A stretch of 64,000 bases of DNA from Octopus vulgaris (taxonomy: Eukaryota): contig OX597823.1 of NCBI GenBank assembly GCA_951406725.2, forward strand, positions 30,938,001 through 31,002,000, read 5' to 3'. The notes below the pieces were generated by a model. It made no database searches, was not told the origin of the DNA, and saw nothing but the letters and a program-made list of their open reading frames with translations. Each line of letters starts with the position of its first letter. Positions within the stretch are counted from its first letter, which is position 1. Positions 1-50,554 of this stretch are shown here, one piece after another. The position numbers and the translations under genes were made by a program.

Positions 1-760
1 TAGACATTCATTTGTATCTATTTATTAATTGGTTACAATCATAGGCGCAGGAGTGGCTGTGTGGTAAGTAGCTTGCTAACCAACCACATGGTTCCGTGTT
101 CAGTCCCACTGCGTGGCATCTTGGGCAAGTGTCTTCTGCTATAGCCCCGGGCCGACCAATGCCTTGTGAGTGGATTTGGTAGACGGACACTGAAAGAAGC
201 CTGTCGTATATATGTATATATATATATGTGTGTGTGTGTTTGTGTGTCTGTGTTTGTTCCTCTAGCATTGCTTGACAACCGATGCTGGTGTGTTTACGTC
301 CCCGTCACTTAGCGGTTCGGCAAAAGAGACCGATAGAATAAGTACTGGGCTTACAAAGAATACGTCCCGGGGTCGATTTGCTCGACTAAAGGCGGTGCTC
401 CAGCATGGCCGCAGTCAAATGACTGAAACAAGTAAAAGAGTAAAAAAAGAGTATATGCATAAGTAATCAAAATAAACGAATCAAATAAGCAAATAAACAA
501 ATAAATAGATAAATAAAAATAAACAAATGAAAAAGAATAAATGAATGAAAAATACTAAGCCCTTACAGCTGTTTCTGCCAAATTTTCCACATCATGACAG
601 AAATATACAGGGATTTTACAAAGGATAAACAAACATTGGACTGCGGTTGGGCAATTACTGAGCCCCAAAGCATCATCAGAGATACTATAATGTTAGGAAT
701 CTAACTTGTGGGGAAATAGGGTAAAATAATAAAATAAAATAAAATAAAATAATAATATAA
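1..760 (-). mobile_element. Penelope-like/retrozyme-like non-coding element (family A) with long-helix-II hammerhead motif, interrupted by SINE at 44-453
   Basis: Reverse complement aligns with 2250-2561, including 1-43 vs 2519-2561. Minus strand reads CTGATGA (679-673)...97 nt...GAAAC AGCT GTA (575-564) with palindromic ACAGCTGT. Confidence 0.7.
44..453 (+). mobile_element. Full-length tRNA-derived CORE-type SINE (octopus OR-like)
   Basis: A box TGGCTGTGTGG, B box GTTCAGTCCC, CORE-like GGCATCTTGGGCAAGTG, internal TA/TG tract, (AAAAGAGT)n tail; close copy at 33962-34354. Confidence 0.9.
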
Positions 761-1984
761 TAGAAATAGTAAGGAATGGTAAAAAACGTCAATTCTAAGG
801 TGATATCCATAATCCATGGGATTACATCTTATGGTAAAGAAAGTCTCCTTCAGGAGTAATCTCCACAGGTTATGAGAGTTAGGTCCTATTACAATTTTAC
901 TGTGGGAAATAGCAAGGGTAAGACGTTGTGGAGTGAGTTTAATGGGATGATCTATATAGCAGGGGTCAAAAGTTAGAGGCTAATTGCTTTTTAATAGAGC
1001 ATCATAAAAAGAATTGAGAAAGTTAACTCATGTGAACTTGATTGGGGAAATCAATACATAAGTATTTCAATGAAAGAATAATTTGGGTAAAACCTTAGTG
1101 CGATGTTATTACTTATTACTTATTACTTGTTAACAAAAATCTCATCCTAACACCCCTATGAAAAATAGTGTGAGGCCATAGTTAATCCTGCAACTTAATT
1201 GGTCCACTAATATTTGAAAACAATGGCGTTGTTCAAGTCCGTTAAATTTGTCAATAAAATCGAAAACAAATAAAAACGAAAAATAAAAGTATTTAAGGAA
1301 TGAATTGTCTAAGGAGCCTTACTCAATGAATGGACGATGAGTAGTGCCTACGTTTATGAGTATAGTACTTTTTAAAATATATCTGAGATATATTGAATTT
1401 ACAAGTCTGAACGAGAAAAATAAAGGATGAAGCAATGAATGGAAAAAATAAACAATACTGGACTCTATTGGAGGGAGGTGGCCGATTAGTACATTAACGT
1501 ATTATGTTTTAATACAGAATTATTAACTTAAATGCCCGACAAATAATGGGATGAATATATGAGCAATATATACTCAAAAATAGACGCTGATTAAAACAGA
1601 ACTTAAAAATCCACGTGCAAAAAGTATCACGCCACTTACGAAACGAACCAGTATGCAAATTAGAAGGTAGTCCAAAAGTTCACTTTAAAAGGACACGAGG
1701 TGAACGCATGAAATAAAGAAGAGTCAGCAAACTTATTTCGATACTTAGAACATAGAATTAAATTAGAGCAATATAACACGTATTAAAATGCAGAGAGAAA
1801 TTATGCACTCATGTAAGATTTAGGGAATATTATTCCGTTATGGATAGATCTAAGTTATACCGTTAAATTTACAAGTAATTGTCCGTAATAGAAAAGCAAA
1901 AGTGGAAATGAATGAATGAAAATGTATTCAGACTTATAAACTATAATTGAAGGGAGGTAACTGTGTATTACGTTCCCATTTCAT

Positions 1985-2240
1985 AATAATAATAATAATG
2001 AAATTATTGTATACAGTGCTCAGGCGCACCACAACTTGTCAAAGGTGCGTATAAAGCATATGCAGTAATGTACAAATGTCTGGAAAGCGAACAGTGTACG
2101 AGTCAGATACATGCTTGCGTGTGTATGGAGGGGAGAAAATCAGGTGTAGTGTTGGCGAATCTCAGGAGGCATGGAAGTTTTGAAGGATCCAGTGCTCCGA
2201 CAACTAACAACTGATGCCGGCAGCTTGTTCCATGCTTCGT
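1985..2240 (-). mobile_element. CR1-clade LINE 3' end
   Basis: Minus strand encodes EAWNKLPASVVSCRSTGSFKTSM..., then 3'UTR and (ATT)n tail; same family as 40377-41065. Confidence 0.8.
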
Positions 2241-2249
2241 TCCCGTTCT

Positions 2250-2561
2250 TTACTATGTTATTTTATTTTATTATTTTACCCGACTTCACCCATATGTTAT
2301 ATTCCGAACATTATAGTCTCCCTGATGAAGCTTTGGGGCTCAGTCATTGTCCAACCCTTGTCCAATATTTGTTCAACCTCAGTAAAATCCCTGTGTATTA
2401 CTGGCATGATGTGGAAGACTAGGTAGATTGGGCAACTCCTTAGTAGAAACAGGTGTAAGAGCTTAGCATTTCCCCACTCATTTATTCTTATTCATTTGTT
2501 TATTTTGATTACTTATACATATCATTGTAATTAATTAATAACTAGATATAAATGAATGCCT
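2250..2561 (+). mobile_element. Family A HHR element, inverted partner of 1-760
   Basis: CTGATGA 2322-2328...117 nt...GAAAC AGGT GTA 2446-2457; alignable to the reverse complement of 1-760. Confidence 0.7.
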
Positions 2562-2623
2562 ACAGGCTGATGTTTTTCGATTGATTATCCACTCTATTTT
2601 CTTAATTGCCTTGTATATATATA

Positions 2624-2709: not shown

Positions 2710-2987
<278 letters not shown>

Positions 2988-3927: not shown

Positions 3928-4099
3928 AAAAAACGAACTTAACTTGTGTGATTAAAATGTAACAATGGCCATTTCGATTTTCTGTTAGATTTAAGTGTGT
4001 GTTTACTCCGTAACCTGGATAATTCCTTGATATTATGGAATGACATTATCCTTTGTAACTCGGACATTTTCCCACATTAAGGAGATGATCATTTCTTAT

Positions 4100-4506
4100 T
4101 AATGGGTGCAAATTTTAGTACAAGACCAGCAATTTTTCGGTGGGGTTGGGGAAGCTAATCGATTACATTAACCCCAGTGCTCAACTGGTTCTTATTTTAT
4201 CGACCCCAGAAGGATAAAAGGCAAAAATCGACCTCAGTGGAAATTGAACTCAGAACGTAAAGACAGACGAAATACCTATTTCTTTACTACCCACAAGGGG
4301 CTAAACACAGAGAGGACAAACAAGGACAGACAAACGGATTAAGTCGATTATATCGACTCCAGTGCGTAACTGGTACTTATTTAATCGACCCCGAAAGGAT
4401 AAAAGGCAAAAATCGACCTCGGCAGAAATTGAACTCAGAACGTAAAGACAGACGAAATACCTAAGCATTTCGTCCGGTGTGCTAACGTTTCTGCCAGCTC
4501 GTCCTC
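4100..4506 (-). mobile_element. Dimeric tRNA-derived SINE (family 2; central domain GCCTTTCATCCTTTCGGGGTCGATAAA..GTACCAG)
   Basis: Reverse complement of 5996-6390; central domain present twice. Confidence 0.85.
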
Positions 4507-4654
4507 TTAATCTGTTCTCAATAATGCGTGTATATTTTCCAGTCCTCGAGTTTTGTTTACACTACAACCGGAAACAATTTCACCCGGCAAGAAAAACAAT
4601 TCGTTCAAGTCTGGAACAATTTCCCATGATAATCTATCATCTACTATCTTTAAA

Positions 4655-4998
4655 ATATATTTGTTTCAGTTATTGGACTGCCGCCATGCTGGGGCATCGC
4701 CCTGAAAGGTTTTAGTCCAACAAATCGTCTGGGGAATTTACAAGTCTGGTACTTATTTTACTAATTTCTTTTGCCGGACTTCTATGTTATAGGGACGTAA
4801 AGCAACCAACACCGATAATCAAGTAGTTGCAGTGATGATAGTGAGGAAACGCAAACATAAAGATACACACATACATATATACAATGGACTTCCACACAGA
4901 TTCCGTTTACTAAATTCAGTCACAAACCGTTGGTCCGCCTTGGGCTATATATAGTAAATGACACTTTCCCAAGGTGCCATGCAGTAGCACTCAACTCA
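4655..4998 (-). mobile_element. Degenerate CORE-type SINE
   Basis: Reverse-complement similarity to 44-453 (ACTTTCCCAAGGTGCCA, GGGACGTAAA, CCATGCTGGGGCA). Confidence 0.75.
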
Positions 4999-5164
4999 GA
5001 ATAGAGCAAGATTTTCCCATAATCTTGAGCAATTTCTCACACTGATGGAAATATATTTTCTCCATAACCTGGAACATTTTACCACGGGAAAAGGTATTTC
5101 CTCGATAAAAGAAGGAAGAAAATATACTCTCATTGTCGTGGGAAATTATTCCAGATTACAGACG

Positions 5165-5400
5165 AAATATATATCTGCATTATTTACATTTGACGGATAT
5201 TTATCCTCATCTTGTTTGTTGTTACCACAACATTTTGGCTTATTTACTCTCCAGCCTTCATCAGGTGTCCTGGTAGAATTTCGAACCCATTCCTAAGGTA
5301 CTTTTTTGCTATTATTATAATTATTATTCGCGGCACTGCTTGGAATTGAATTCGCAATAAAATAGAAGCCCGCGCATGGAACCATTACGCTATTTGCCCT
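5165..5400 (-). mobile_element. Family C: tRNA-like head + (AAT)n + HHR element, left arm of foldback
   Basis: Minus strand: GGCAAATAGCGTAATGG (A-box-like)...GAATTCAATTCC (B-box-like), then GACAC CTGATGA A GGCTG...AGCC (core 5264-5258). Confidence 0.7.
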
Positions 5401-6931: not shown

Positions 6932-7262
6932 CAACAACAACAACAATAATAATAATAACAACAACAACAACTACAACAACATCGAAAAATACCTTAGGAA
7001 TGAGAACCCAGGTTCGAAATTTCCCCAAGATACCTGATGAAGGATGTGGAGGGTATATCAGCCGAAACGCTGTGTTAACAACAAACAAGATGAGGACAAA
7101 TATCCGTCAAAAGTAAATAATGTACATAATGTACATAATTCCTCATCTCTTAAATATAGAACCGTATCAGGTCGGTTTGCTTGACTAAGTCCTTCAAGGT
7201 GGCATCTCAGCATGACTGCAGTCCAATGACCAAAATAAATAGAAGAGTCCAGAATAAAATGA
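6503..7262 (+). mobile_element. CORE-type SINE interrupted by a family C element
   Basis: Head at 6503, body resumes at 7179; similar to 44-453. Confidence 0.8.
6856..7162 (+). mobile_element. Family C HHR element inserted with ~16-bp TSD
   Basis: Flanks CGTACTCAGGTCGGTTT (6839-6855) and CGTATCAGGTCGGTTT (7163-7178); GATAC CTGATGA (7034-7040)...GCC GAAAC GCT GTGTT (7064-7076). Confidence 0.85.
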
Positions 7263-17132: not shown

Positions 17133-17224
17133 TTATATAAGTGTGTGTGCGTATGTGTATGTGTGTGTATAGAGTGTGCTTATTTTCGGATATATGATCC
17201 ACTGACGATATATGTATCGTCAGT

Positions 17225-17272
<48 letters not shown>

Positions 17273-17657: not shown

Positions 17658-17732
<75 letters not shown>

Positions 17733-17869
17733 CACAAAAATTCCGATTTGAACTGCAATTGAAGATGTAATTTTGTGACTCCTCTTTCTAAAGCGGCTAG
17801 AAGTGGCTTCCCTTTGAGTCGTTAGGTATAGATTAAAGCAGAAAAGAAAATGAAAACGGTTTGGCAAGA

Positions 17870-18280
17870 CTTGACAGGGACATTTAATTTAGCTATATAG
17901 TAAAATTTAGCTATATAATAAAAGTCTCTGGCAGCTGTTTCTAGAATGTCTCAGCTATTGGAATATCAGCGAAGATTCCATATGCTGGGTATACCGTCTT
18001 CGGAAAGAGATAAATTAAACATATGTAACATTTGAAGAAAATTTCTCATCAACGATAGTTATTATTGTACATTATGTCTAGGAAAAAGCCATTTAATCCG
18101 ATTAAAACGAGTATCCATTAGGTAAATCCATTTTTCCTCGCCATGGATTACTATCGAAACATTGTTCATGGATTTACTGTTTTAATCGGATATAACTGGA
18201 TTTCTCCGCCCTTCTAGACATAATGAACCATAACAACTATCGTTGGTGAGGAATTTTCTTCCAATGTTACATACGTTTAA

Positions 18281-18290
<10 letters not shown>
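17870..18290 (-). mobile_element. Foldback element with long-helix-II HHR (family A-like)
   Basis: Inverted repeat ~18005-18108 vs 18179-18287; minus TCTTT CCGAAGA (18003-17997)...GAAAC AGCT GCC AGAGA. Confidence 0.65.
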
Positions 18291-18312
<22 letters not shown>

Positions 18313-18630
18313 AGCCTATGGAATCCTCGCTCGACACGATGGATCAATCCAAAGTGGTGGACCAACAAAACTATAAAGCCGAATTGAATGCCTTGCCGTA
18401 TTTTCTTCCGGCTTTTTGCGCTCTGAGTTCAAATCCTACACCAATTATTTCTTTTGTCTTTCCGGGTGAAATTGAAAAATCAATCCAGGGTGGCGCATGC
18501 TAGGATATCTTGCGCAATTTGTTCTACTCTGCGGTCAAATACCGCCATGGCCTACAGAAAAGATTTATGTTATAACCAGCATAAGAGTACTTGTAAACTC
18601 TGTGTGAGCATGTGTGTGTGTAATATATAT

Positions 18631-21600
18631 GTAGTCTCGGCACTCTTCCGGCAGTTCCTGCAATCAAGCTGGTGCCAAACGTAATGCTCTGCACTCCTTT
18701 GGACTACATCAGCAAGGTCGAGAGAGGAATCCTGACGATTTTCTTATTTCTAACCCAGGCCTGCGCAAAAACTGGTGAGGATGCTTCAGTGCTGCTGTAA
18801 AAAGTGGCTGAAAAAACACGGGAGGTAGCAGTTACGAGTGATAAGTCCATTCATATTGGCGTAAGATATGGGCGCTACGGGTTACCTCTGACGGAAGGAG
18901 GGACCCCGTGTCCCACTGGTTAGCTACTGCCCACCTCAAGCTGGGCAGCCCCCAGTTAATAAGGTGCTGTCCCGCCACAGGCTGCCTGCTTCATTGGGTG
19001 ATTGGAGCTAAGAGTTTGGTTTGAAAAACGGCCTGCAACCTCTGTACCAGGCAAACAACTAAAAGACAAGAAACCACCAGTCCTGCGGTTAGCAAGTTGG
19101 AATGTCAGGACCATGTGCCCTGGCATATCTGATGATCTACTCAGGGTTGAAAACACAAGAAAGACGGCTATCATTGACCGTGAACTAAAGAGGCTTAACA
19201 TAGACATTGCTGGACTGCAGGAGACAAGACTCACCTCAAACGGCAAACTCAAAGAACAGGATTTCACCTTCTTTTGGCAGGGAAGCGATTCAGAAGAACC
19301 CAGTCAGCATGGTGTTAGCTTTGCAGTGAGAAACTAATTACTTTCCTCAATAGAACCATCACCAGGAGGAACTGACTGTATCCTCTCACTGCGCCTCTCG
19401 ACTTCTTCTGGTTCAGTACATCTACTGAGCATCTATGCTCCCGCTCTCTACAGCTCAGAGGAGACCAAGGACCAGTTCTACAAATATCTCAACTGTGTCA
19501 TTAGAAATATACCAACCAATGAAAACATCTACCTTCTAGGAGATTTTAACGCTCGCGTGGGATCTGACCATGATTCGTGGCCCATTTGTGTTGGACACTT
19601 CGGTATTAGCAACATGAATGACAATGGTCAGAGACTACTTGAATTTTGCACATACCATAACCTGTGCATAACCAACACATTCTTTGCCAACAAGCCATCC
19701 CATAAGGCATCTTGGAGACATCCAAGATCTCACCACTGGCATCAGCTGGATCTCATCATTACACGAAAATCTCATCTGAATTCTGTTCAACTGACCCGTA
19801 GTTACCACAGCGCGGATTGTGACACAGATCATTCAATAATAAGAAGTAGGGTGAGGATTCTGCCGAAAAAAGTCCATCACTCCAAGAAAATGGGCTGACC
19901 ACGCATTAACACTGCCAGAACCTCGGACCCTACACTGCGAAAATGTTTTGCTGTTTCTATCAAGGTGTCCCTCAGTAGCTGCCCAACCTCCTCTGCTGAA
20001 AGTAGGTGGAATTATATCAGGGAAGCTTTGTATACCACATCAATAGATACTTTCGGCATGAGAGAAAGGCAAAACCCAGATTGGTTCAGTACTGGGCTCT
20101 CAGAGCTGGAACCAGTTATCGAAGCAAAGCGTGCAGCTCTGATGCAATACAAAAGTGATTCTTCTACAAAGTCACTCGAAGAACTCAGAAAGGTAAGAAA
20201 TAAAACCCAACAGACTGCTAGATGCTGTGCAAATAGGTATTGGCACGAAATCTGTCAGAGTATGCAGTCAGCTGCTGACAGTGGGATGTATGCCGGTTTG
20301 AAGAAGACCCTCGGTCCATCAGCAACCAAGTCAGCCCTTCTGAAATCAACTACTGGGGATTTCATCAAGGACCAAAGCAAGCAAATGGATAGATGGGTGG
20401 AGTACTACCAGGATCTCTACATACGGGAGACCACGGTAGCTTAGGCTGCAATCGAGGGTGTCAAGATCTTGCCAGTCATGTGCGAACTTGACAGTCTGCC
20501 ATCTATAGCAGAGCTCACCAAGGCTATTGACTCCTTAGCAAGTAACAAAGCTCCGGGAAAAGACGGCATCCCCTAGAGATCATCAAAGCCGGCAAAAACA
20601 CCATCCTGCTTCGGAACCTTCATGAGTTTCTGTGTCAGTGCTGGGAAGAGCTGAGGATAAGCGGGATGATAACATCATTACGCTTTACAAAAACAAAGGT
20701 GACCGTTGTGATTGTAACAATTACCGTGGAATATCTCTTCTAAGCACTGTTGGAAAGCCCTTTACTCGCGTTATCCTGTCCAGGCTACAACTGCTTGCTT
20801 CTCGAATTTATCAGAATCGCAGTGTGGCTTTAGAAGAAGCAGATCAACTATTGACATCATATTCTCCATACGCCAACTTCAGAAGTCCAGAGAGCAGAAA
20901 ATGCCATTATATATGGCCTTCATTGATCTGACAAAGGCCTTTGACTTGGTAAGTAGAAAAGGCCTCTTCATCCTGCTCCTAAAAATCGGATGTTCACCAA
21001 AGCTGCTGAGGATCATCAAATCTTTCCATGATGATAAGCAAGGCACCATACATCACAATGGTTCAACATCAGCCGCCTTCCAAATAAAAAACGGGTTAAA
21101 GCAAGGTTGTGTCCTTGCTCCTACATTATTTGGCATCTTCTTTTCGCTGCTGCTCTCACATGCCTTTGAGACATCAGATGATGGAGTGTTTCTGCACAGT
21201 AGAAGTGACGGGAAACTGTTCAATCTCTGGCGTCTGCGTGCTAAGACCAAAATCAGAAGCGTCCTGATCAAGGAGATACTATTTGCTGATGATGCCGCTT
21301 TGGTATCATACACAGAAGAAGCCCTGCAAAGGCTCATCAACTGTTTTGAGCAAGCTTAGTTATCAGCCTCAAGAAGACCAACATCATGGGTCAGGCTACA
21401 TCGGACATCCCAAACATACATATTGGAGACCAGAGACTACAGGAAGTAGAGAAGTTTACTTATCTTGGCTCTACCGTTACCTCTCTGAGTTCAATATACG
21501 CATTGGCAAGGCAGCTGCTGTGATGGCCCAACTCTCCAAACGGGCATGGGACAACAATAAGTTGACCAAGACTACAAAAATGAAGATTTACCAGGCATGT

Positions 21601-31435: not shown

Positions 31436-32569
31436 ACAAACCATTACGTTCCTTATCAAATACAAATGCTGTACGTGAAGTAGACGAAGAAATGTTTGCG
31501 AAGGTCAAAAGTCAACTGAGAAAAGGTATAATTTCTTGATTCAGCGATTGCATAAAATTACACACTGACGTCTCAACTCCAGCGAACACCACTGCATTGT
31601 GTCTAACGCCGCGTTTCATTTATTTCATTTATTATGGCCATAAAAACGTTTTGTATTGCGGCTTCTGTTAATATTTGTTGTTACTTTTCTTTCATTTTAT
31701 TACGTATATGACACGATTGAAGCTGTGTAGTCTGAGCCTGAGGCTGTAGGTCGGAGAATGAGTGTTGGGAGCGGATACTTGCTCTTCGTATTTTGGATAA
31801 TCTTGGATCTATAAGGTTCGTTGATTGGCTCTAAGTAGATAAATAGATGTCCTGTCTTTCAAGACTACATCACTATATATATATAAGATAAGAGAACGGA
31901 GAGGATATAAAATCGACAGACATCAGCCAGTAAACATTCCAGTATATCTATTTATTCAATTGTATTGGATGAATACACACACGTGTATGAGTGATACAGA
32001 TTAACGAGTGGAAAAAGCTAGAAACTGCATAGACAAGGGGTGTGAATACATACAAGCATATAGAAATAAATGAGCAAAAATATAAATGGGTGCCCAGGTA
32101 CTAGCTCCTTACGGCCGTTTCTGCCAAGTGGCAAAAAAATCTTTCAGGATTTCTCCAATACTTTAATGTTATGCAGGGATCACAGACAGGGCTTGGATAA
32201 TGGATGTGCTCCTAGACTTCTTCAGAGGGTCTAAGTAGTTGTGGGAAATAACACATAAAAATCCAGTGGTGGGGAGGTAAATAATATCACTTTATTTACC
32301 TCCCCACCTCTTGATGAAATAGCATGGATTTTATGAATACTTTATGAGAAGTCTGTACCTTGTTTCCCTTTGCTATGCCCACACAATATTGTACTATACT
32401 ATATTCTCTTGTATTCTTGCTTTTGCAGTGGTGTTCGCTGGAGTCGAGACGTCAGTGTGTAATTTTATGCAATCGCTGAATCAAGAAATTATACCTTTTC
32501 TCAGTTGACTTTTGACCTTCGCAAACATTTCTTCGTCTACTTCACGTACAGCATTTGTAATGGTTTGTG
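31436..32569. mobile_element. Near-perfect 136-bp inverted repeats enclosing ~830 bp
   Basis: 31461-31596 vs 32424-32559, one visible mismatch; symmetry extends into flanking microsatellites. Confidence 0.9.
31890..32420 (-). mobile_element. Family A-like element with long-helix-II HHR
   Basis: Minus: CCCT CTGAAGA (32225-32219)...97 nt...GAAAC GGCC GTA AGG; palindromic ACGGCCGT; tail resembles 1-43. Confidence 0.7.
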
Positions 32570-50221: not shown

Positions 50222-50554
50222 GTAATAATAATATATACACATACATATATGTATACACACACATACACACTCTCTCGCTCTCTCACACACACACATAGGT
50301 TAGCTGAGTAAGAGGTTAAAATAACCGTGTAAGGGATAGAAGTATCTATTACACTACCGGTATGTTACCTATGTTTAACCATGGGTATATACCAGTGTAT
50401 ATATCAAAGGGCATATATCAGTAGCAATACCATACAACATTGGAAGCAGAAACAGTTGTTAGATGGGATGCAGTCTATTTGTATTGAATTAATAAATAAT
50501 AATTGACGTAAGTCAATTGTTGTTCATCAAATTTCTACATTTTGTGTCTTCTAA

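Follow-up and report, generated by a model that had tools for sequence, protein, structure and literature searches.

Hammerhead motifs in the window

The window, the whole 64-kb stretch of Octopus vulgaris DNA that was analysed, contains hammerhead motifs in which a long insert separates the two halves of the core. These motifs lie within fragments of dispersed repeat families (A, C, D and E), as follows:

1..1990 (-): old Penelope-like insertion of family A, long arm; 3' UTR, hammerhead and tail; 5'-truncated
44..452 (+): repeat inserted in the family A tail; a later insertion, ends approximate
554..690 (-): hammerhead copy A; helix I strands 680-683 and 560-563; GAAAC-palindrome-GUA 564-575
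1504..1778 (strand not given): unrelated repeat inserted in the family A 3' UTR, with its own set of matches
1989..2250 (strand not given): unrelated repeat between the two family A arms, beside a (TAA)n run
2254..2614 (+): short inverted family A arm; 5'-truncated; terminates at the short fixed 3' end, against (TA)n
2312..2466 (+): hammerhead copy B; core 2322-2328; full 117-nt insert 2329-2445; site 2446-2457
17727..18085 (-): family D copy; hammerhead 17922-18011 with 55-nt insert 17942-17996; inverted pieces at 18165-18348
31888..32261 (-): family C copy; hammerhead 32101-32234 with 97-nt insert (family 98 nt); inverted piece 32294-32426
50415..50552 (+): 5'-truncated family E copy; what is left is the helix II 3' strand, GAAAC, an imperfect palindrome, GUU and the tail

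Copy A has its core at 673-679(-), separated from GAAAC by a 97-nt insert (576-672); the palindrome ACAGCTGT and then GUA follow, and the predicted cut site lies between 564 and 563. Because the insert is 116-118 nt long in most sampled family A loci (20 of 30 fetched loci, with seven of other lengths and three unmeasurable), we read the 97-nt spacing as a private 20-nt deletion, which removed the 3' strand of helix II and left this helix unclosed. In copy B, one change each disrupts the palindrome and the first helix I pair. Copy C has its core at 32219-32225(-), a 97-nt insert at 32122-32218 and the palindrome ACGGCCGT. The core of copy D (17997-18003(-)) reads CCGAAGA and its site GCC, two departures from the consensus; its palindrome is broken, and about 10 nt have been lost relative to family D, whose inserts measure about 61-65 nt. 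Copies of family E elsewhere carry 87-96-nt inserts.

A strict pattern (core, 40-140 nt, GAAAC, palindrome and GUH) matched three sites in the window and none in each of 200 simulated windows with a dinucleotide content like that of the window. The core-to-GAAAC spacings of 97, 117, 97 and 55 nt given by an earlier sequence-only reading proved to be exact, and the 3' half that it placed at 50449(+) is real, belonging to the 5'-truncated copy that starts at 50415. That reading also described the copy at 32101 as having the same architecture around a different insert; the architecture stands, but the insert is not unrelated, being homologous to that of family A, though diverged.

None of the flagged copies is an intact ribozyme. 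The unchanged core CUGANGA...GAAA...UH is present in window copies A, B and C, as it is in the young family described below, and is lost from copy D. All window copies are nonetheless damaged by a deletion, a broken palindrome or core changes. The four window inserts, together with copy L006, folded no better than shuffled sequences. The hammerhead fold of copies A, B and C lay 7-13 kcal/mol above the predicted dimer minimum, with helix II open under constraint. The window copies are decayed relics and likely dead as ribozymes.

The long arm at the window start extends about 220 nt beyond it, reaching the long fixed 3' end of the family; the fixed 3' end of the short arm lies 156 nt past the cut site. 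Because the short end is where copy B terminates, whereas copy A runs on to the long one, we infer that the copies at 679(-) and 2322(+) are two arms of one old insertion, split later by other repeats. The repeat at 44..452 is presumably a tRNA-like SINE. Interruptions 90-97 nt past the cut site recur in independent family A copies (window 44-452, L005, L011, L016, L018, L021, L109 and L143), mostly through the same tRNA-like SINE, which marks an insertion hot spot inside the family A tail.

Elsewhere in the window, we noted short-helix minimal hammerhead-like motifs in other repeat families at 2760-2805(+) (10-nt spacer and 4-nt palindrome), 7025-7085(+) and 5215-5275(-), the last one degenerate. 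A GC-richer stretch at about 18700-21500(+) looks to us like a decayed LINE reverse-transcriptase gene, and a perfect short inverted repeat adjoins a (TA)n run at 17199-17226.

The host element

The family A hammerhead is separated from the end of an upstream GIY-YIG gene by 1.65-2.1 kb of non-coding sequence. The end of the endonuclease (EN) coding sequence, the UTR and the hammerhead are colinear in six loci (L140, L141, L142, L143, L145 and L207), and the sequence upstream of the family A UTR comprises EN plus part of the reverse transcriptase (RT). A family A 5' end placed at a (TA)n run turned out to be internal. We also rejected a Penelope-type ORF 3.6 kb upstream of L013 (in L068) as the host, as unrelated repeats intervene. 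L068 holds a different Penelope-type RT-EN fragment at 3969-5114(-), with a weak Pfam GIY-YIG match, and about 2 kb downstream of it, at about 1930-2020(-), what by eye looks like a further hammerhead, its insert measuring about 54 nt.

Using the family A EN fragment as the query, we reached a young family with long open frames. Its locus L208 contains a single 960-aa ORF, with RT followed by a C-terminal GIY-YIG endonuclease (YRDD at 389 and YIG at 856). The ORF carries RWR (for RWK), DKT, a CxCX5C linker and, in EN, CxxC and CxH, and is without GxKF/Y. The published traits of the Hydra clade of Penelope-like elements (PLEs) are RWK, DKT, the CxCX5C linker, CxxC and CxH in EN and no GxKF/Y (PMC8557442), and in a comparison by eye the L208 motifs resembled the published Hydra consensus sequences. 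Family A fragments carry the C-terminal motifs; RW and DKT were not seen there. The tail motifs of L208, both terminal motifs included, are common to family A. A protein library yielded 314 relatives of the ORF at E<=1e-30. Pfam returned no match. Insertions show partial tandems of the pLTR, inverted 5'-truncated arms and (TA)n targets. Judged by sequence motifs, the host is a Hydra-clade Penelope-like retroelement, an identification absent from the sequence-only reading. The 960-aa ORF (L208:3774-6653(-)) contains long Asn-rich stretches, and its best library relatives are mostly shorter, at about 700-800 aa.

The L208 hammerhead lies 2 kb past the stop codon, with a perfect core, a G10.1-C11.1 pair, an 85-nt insert and the family A palindrome; the young-family hammerhead has 1,321 exact matches in the genome. 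The 23 young loci examined showed back-to-back arms and partial tandems with a 5,579-nt unit flanked by two hammerheads. Copies finish at either of two fixed 3' ends, which lie about 202 and 376 nt past the cut site; in L284-L303, the two ends are 174 nt apart, one per arm of inverted pairs. Tails of Hydra-clade elements have been described as 30-40 bp long (PMC8557442). Contigs of the young family were present in four sequencing runs presumed to be RNA, although these contigs show no ends, strand or level.

Long-armed hammerheads across the genome

We searched the whole genome (2.8 Gb, 227 contigs) for one palindrome class, the helix III palindrome being demanded by the search pattern. Spacers of 40-140 nt gave 8,738 matches, some of them false (for example, L279 and L280), compared with 16 for the reversed pattern. 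Spacers of 90-140 nt gave 2,608 matches versus nine for the reversed control, and those of 4-39 nt gave 2,763 versus four, the length classes overlapping slightly. The insert ends closed with a probability above 0.5 in 20 out of the first 30 unselected long-spacer matches, compared with 33 out of 600 shuffles. For hand-picked long-spacer matches, helix II closed in 26 out of 40, compared with 20 out of 400 shuffles.

Family A is dispersed, with 143 candidates (40 scored). Family C, represented by the copy at 32101, has 309 candidates and a 98-nt insert homologous to that of family A, of which it is a sister lineage; family D, represented by the copy at 17942, has 103 candidates. The exact core is kept in 15 of 23 family A copies, 13 of 23 family C copies and 4 of 20 family D copies. 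Copies of families A and C are about 92% identical to their own consensus, and only six family A copies keep both the exact core and the helix base; these two families are old and decayed. CCGAUGA replaces CUGAUGA in family D (L182-L201) and in some short-helix copies (L279 and L280), alongside CpG-type decay products, and this U4C core may be ancestral in both.

The shared terminal motif was found in 1 out of 30 unselected long-spacer loci, so the membership of most long-spacer families in the lineage of A, C and the young family is not established. The sequence upstream of family C copies yielded no ORF, and family C is linked to A by homology only. A Hydra-like ORF was found near none of 13 loci of a family with 21-nt spacers, and a metagenome scan with a distant relative yielded no locus.

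The insert is predicted to fold as an extended helix II

The strand order of these motifs is that of a canonical type I hammerhead with an open helix I and is not rearranged. In majority consensus sequences (from 23 A, 23 C and 20 D copies), the insert folds as one closed arm, with helix II closing beside the core. The predicted minimum-energy fold of each consensus dimer is the double hammerhead (-79.5 kcal/mol for A, -85.7 for C and -65.9 for D), which beats two monomers; for the young copy, the double hammerhead lies 3 kcal/mol above the predicted dimer minimum. All dimer energies describe secondary structure only, with the core not modelled. The palindromic helix III suits the double hammerhead in the A, C and D consensus sequences and in the young copy. 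Unconstrained RNAalifold on 23 family C copies returned another fold and not the hammerhead.

We aligned 32 copies from A, C, the young family and sister families. The proposed structure paired in 82.8% of cells, helix III being fixed by the search pattern, and sliding the partners left 24-48% pairing. Two-sided changes occurred in 45 cells, compared with 18.6 in shuffles, in a statistic that ignores relatedness among copies and counts the proximal helix only, because MAFFT lost register in the distal rod. Counted by pairs or by pair types with two-sided changes, this alignment did not exceed shuffles. Pairing and covariation are evident over roughly the first 10 pairs of helix II, and a G-C or G-U pair occupies the second helix II position in all 32 copies. 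An A.A mismatch sits at the helix II base in families A and C. Helix I has 4 bp in the A consensus, 3 in C and 2 plus a distal extension in L208, with 83% of cells paired over three positions. The sequence-only reading is borne out in calling these hammerheads and in assigning the long insert to a closed helix II: in the consensus, the two ends of the insert pair with each other, and they covary from one family to another.

A CUUCAG/CUGAAG hairpin occupies the arm tip in L226, L249, L256 and some family C copies. It is possible that its 5' strand pairs with a CUGAAGA core, giving an alternative fold.

Relation to known hammerheads

The published RNAmotif descriptor caps stem II at 7 bp and its loop at 10 nt and accepts one extra base per side (PMC4209133). 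As it allows an extra N10 and N11, the A.A flank is already known, and 26 nt between the core halves is its ceiling. The helix II arms of 85-117 nt described here fall outside this descriptor, at more than three times its limit. Rfam cmscan returned no hammerhead match at E<=10 for the window pair or the intact young copy, and none for seven other loci. An Rfam scan of the whole window gave 443 matches, and the 150 of them listed were stretches of microsatellite that mimic miRNA and snoRNA models. The suggestion that standard hammerhead searches miss such motifs is therefore correct for both this descriptor and Rfam. In addition, hammerhead matches with a 10.1-11.1 mismatch were rejected in one published survey (PMC3088659).

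The minimal type I hammerheads of metazoan PLEs share with the motifs described here the type I order, a short helix I, a dimer-suited palindromic helix III, optional extra bases flanking helix II, the pLTR location and the presence of many sequence-distinct families per genome; their helix II, however, has 3-8 bp and a 3-10-nt loop (PMC4209133), whereas here it is a bulged rod of 85-117 nt, in places about 135 nt. Hydra-clade hammerheads share the protein motifs, (TA)n targets, the 3'-tail position and a helix II flanked on each side by a mismatch or an extra base, but all 26 Hydra rows of File S2 have 26 nt or fewer between the core halves (PMC8557442). Published Hydra-clade elements are also generally shorter than about 3 kb, a tendency and not a defining trait (PMC8557442). 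The young element measures 5.6 kb; a 2-kb UTR comes before its hammerhead, and its fixed 3' ends, two in number, are separated by 174 nt. The longest entry in File S2, PLE-X1_sMoe from spike moss, likewise has an enlarged helix II (a 9-bp stem and a 35-nt loop, about 54 nt) and is marked as deviating from canonical. This arm is half the length of those seen here, and it is a single plant case, in an endonuclease-less element, not described as a widespread class (PMC8557442). PAc, from the Anolis element Poseidon, resembles the octopus motifs in its likely action, being a weak PLE hammerhead with protein-dependent cutting, and in its two reverse-transcription start sites, which give two fixed ends as here (PMC11167929). 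It belongs to a different clade, its motif overlaps the ORF start, and a long helix II is not described in the accessible part of that source (PMC11167929).

Non-LTR retrozymes of animals are protein-free, head-to-tail repeats of a few hundred nucleotides, which is not the layout here. In the discontinuous Clec2 hammerhead of mammals, the insertion is not known to lie in helix II, and the ribozyme works as a monomer. It too is a natural hammerhead split by a long insertion and located in a 3' UTR, but it is a host-gene motif with several hundred inserted nucleotides, unlike the PLE motif here (PMC6765202). We found no description of a helix II of about 100 nt in PLE hammerheads in the literature searched, in which supplementary data were incompletely covered. 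The octopus motif is genuine and abundant. It is a long-armed form, apparently not described before, of a ribozyme that is itself known, as is the class of element that carries it.

Proposed action and alternatives

In the elements described here, the core is complete, helix III consists of 2 bp with the palindrome as its cap, helix I is short, and helix II is long and closed. We favor the view, with a probability of roughly 0.68, that they are minimal type I hammerheads in the 3' tail of a Hydra-clade PLE, with helix II drawn out into an arm of 85-117 nt, and that intact copies likely cut only when two of them pair through the 8-nt palindrome, the window copies being decayed and likely dead. 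In a partial tandem, the two hammerheads flanking the 5,579-nt unit would pair through helix III and cut slowly, probably aided by the element's own protein, as has been reported of another Penelope-like element (PMC11167929). Cuts at both pLTR copies would release unit-length RNA. Low activity is predicted from the helix I of 2-4 bp before mismatches and from the A.A mismatch in families A and C, and PLE hammerheads have been found to cleave poorly alone and weakly as dimers (PMC4209133). For PAc, the element protein is needed for cutting, and cleavage is unnecessary for insertion in vitro (PMC11167929).

The arm extends outward, away from the core, which can therefore tolerate it, and the conserved, bulged rod may double as a folding scaffold or protein contact. 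Whether the arm has its own job is close to an even call. It could instead be neutral baggage on a working ribozyme, with helix II grown by slippage and selection acting only on its base; this alternative, which we rate somewhat below even odds, differs from our preferred reading only over the role of the arm. Spacers range from 21 to about 135 nt across families sharing the core and palindrome, and the 21-nt family thrives in the same genome. The family A insert contains an 11-nt tandem repeat (autocorrelation 0.53 at 11 and 0.49 at 22, about 0.25 elsewhere), by which it grew, and the stability of its consensus was not above that of shuffles (z -0.66). Set against this are the young rod (z -6.6 versus shuffles), a sister copy (z -6.0) and 16 out of 20 sister-lineage inserts at z -2 or lower (10 shuffles each), as well as a 1x1 mismatch following the fourth pair and a 5'-side bulge that recur across families. 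Moreover, in six comparisons of young subfamilies with L208, insert identity was 0.83-0.96 and that of the adjoining tail 0.68-0.80, with pair-keeping changes; this better preservation of the insert points to selection on the arm.

A larger claim would be that helix II turned into a regulatory arm of about 100 nt across a whole radiation of PLEs, binding RT and licensing cleavage as a protein-gated switch that couples processing to retrotransposition, and that long-armed forms outnumber canonical ones in some animals and have been missed everywhere. We consider this doubtful.

The motif might also have been retained as an RNA structure for the element's RT or for RNA pairing, with no useful cutting left. 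The weak helix I, the A.A mismatch in A and C and the CCGAUGA core of the family D consensus fit this idea, as does the dispensability of cleavage in vitro for PAc (PMC11167929). All young arms at the 23 loci read through the cut site, which implies that the template was uncut or re-ligated. Among the alignments listed and the young arms, we found no copies starting at the cut site, in samples chosen for containing the hammerhead, and the PAc study found no RNA reads ending there (PMC11167929). Read-through, however, would also be seen if the template were a re-ligated circle or an uncut precursor. Dozens of families with distinct sequences keep the full catalytic core while their flanks have diverged beyond recognition, and the young family has the canonical G10.1-C11.1 pair, which makes a purely structural role unlikely.

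It is very improbable that family A represents a retrozyme or SINE-like repeat without a protein of its own, and not the tail of an autonomous element. Most sampled family A copies lack an ORF, but the six loci with EN coding sequence colinear with the UTR and hammerhead largely refute this idea for A, and head-to-tail arrays of 150-500 nt were absent among 60 A and C loci. For families D and E, to which no ORF was tied, it is a possible reading. Chance juxtaposition of a core and a distant GAAAC in AT-rich repeat DNA explains L279 and L280, in which an upstream CTGAAGA was matched to a short hammerhead whose true core is CCGATGA, and would fit the 10 out of 30 unselected matches with helix II unclosed, but the genome-wide excess over the reversed pattern, the closure rates and the covariation refute it for families A, C and D and the young family, leaving it a negligible prospect.

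Implications

The long-spacer motifs (8,738, about two-thirds closing helix II in a sample of 30) outnumber the short ones (2,763) within one palindrome class. Because the published descriptor and Rfam cannot see long-armed motifs, genome counts of hammerheads may be too low, and claims that an element lacks one may err. That a hammerhead tolerates a long helix II is expected, and both the chemistry and the link to PLEs were known already, so these results extend the existing picture and do not overturn it. The octopus genome holds a natural helix II length series, from 21 to about 135 nt on one core, and a young intact family with its protein, which eases testing of the role of PLE hammerheads and of the help they receive from protein.
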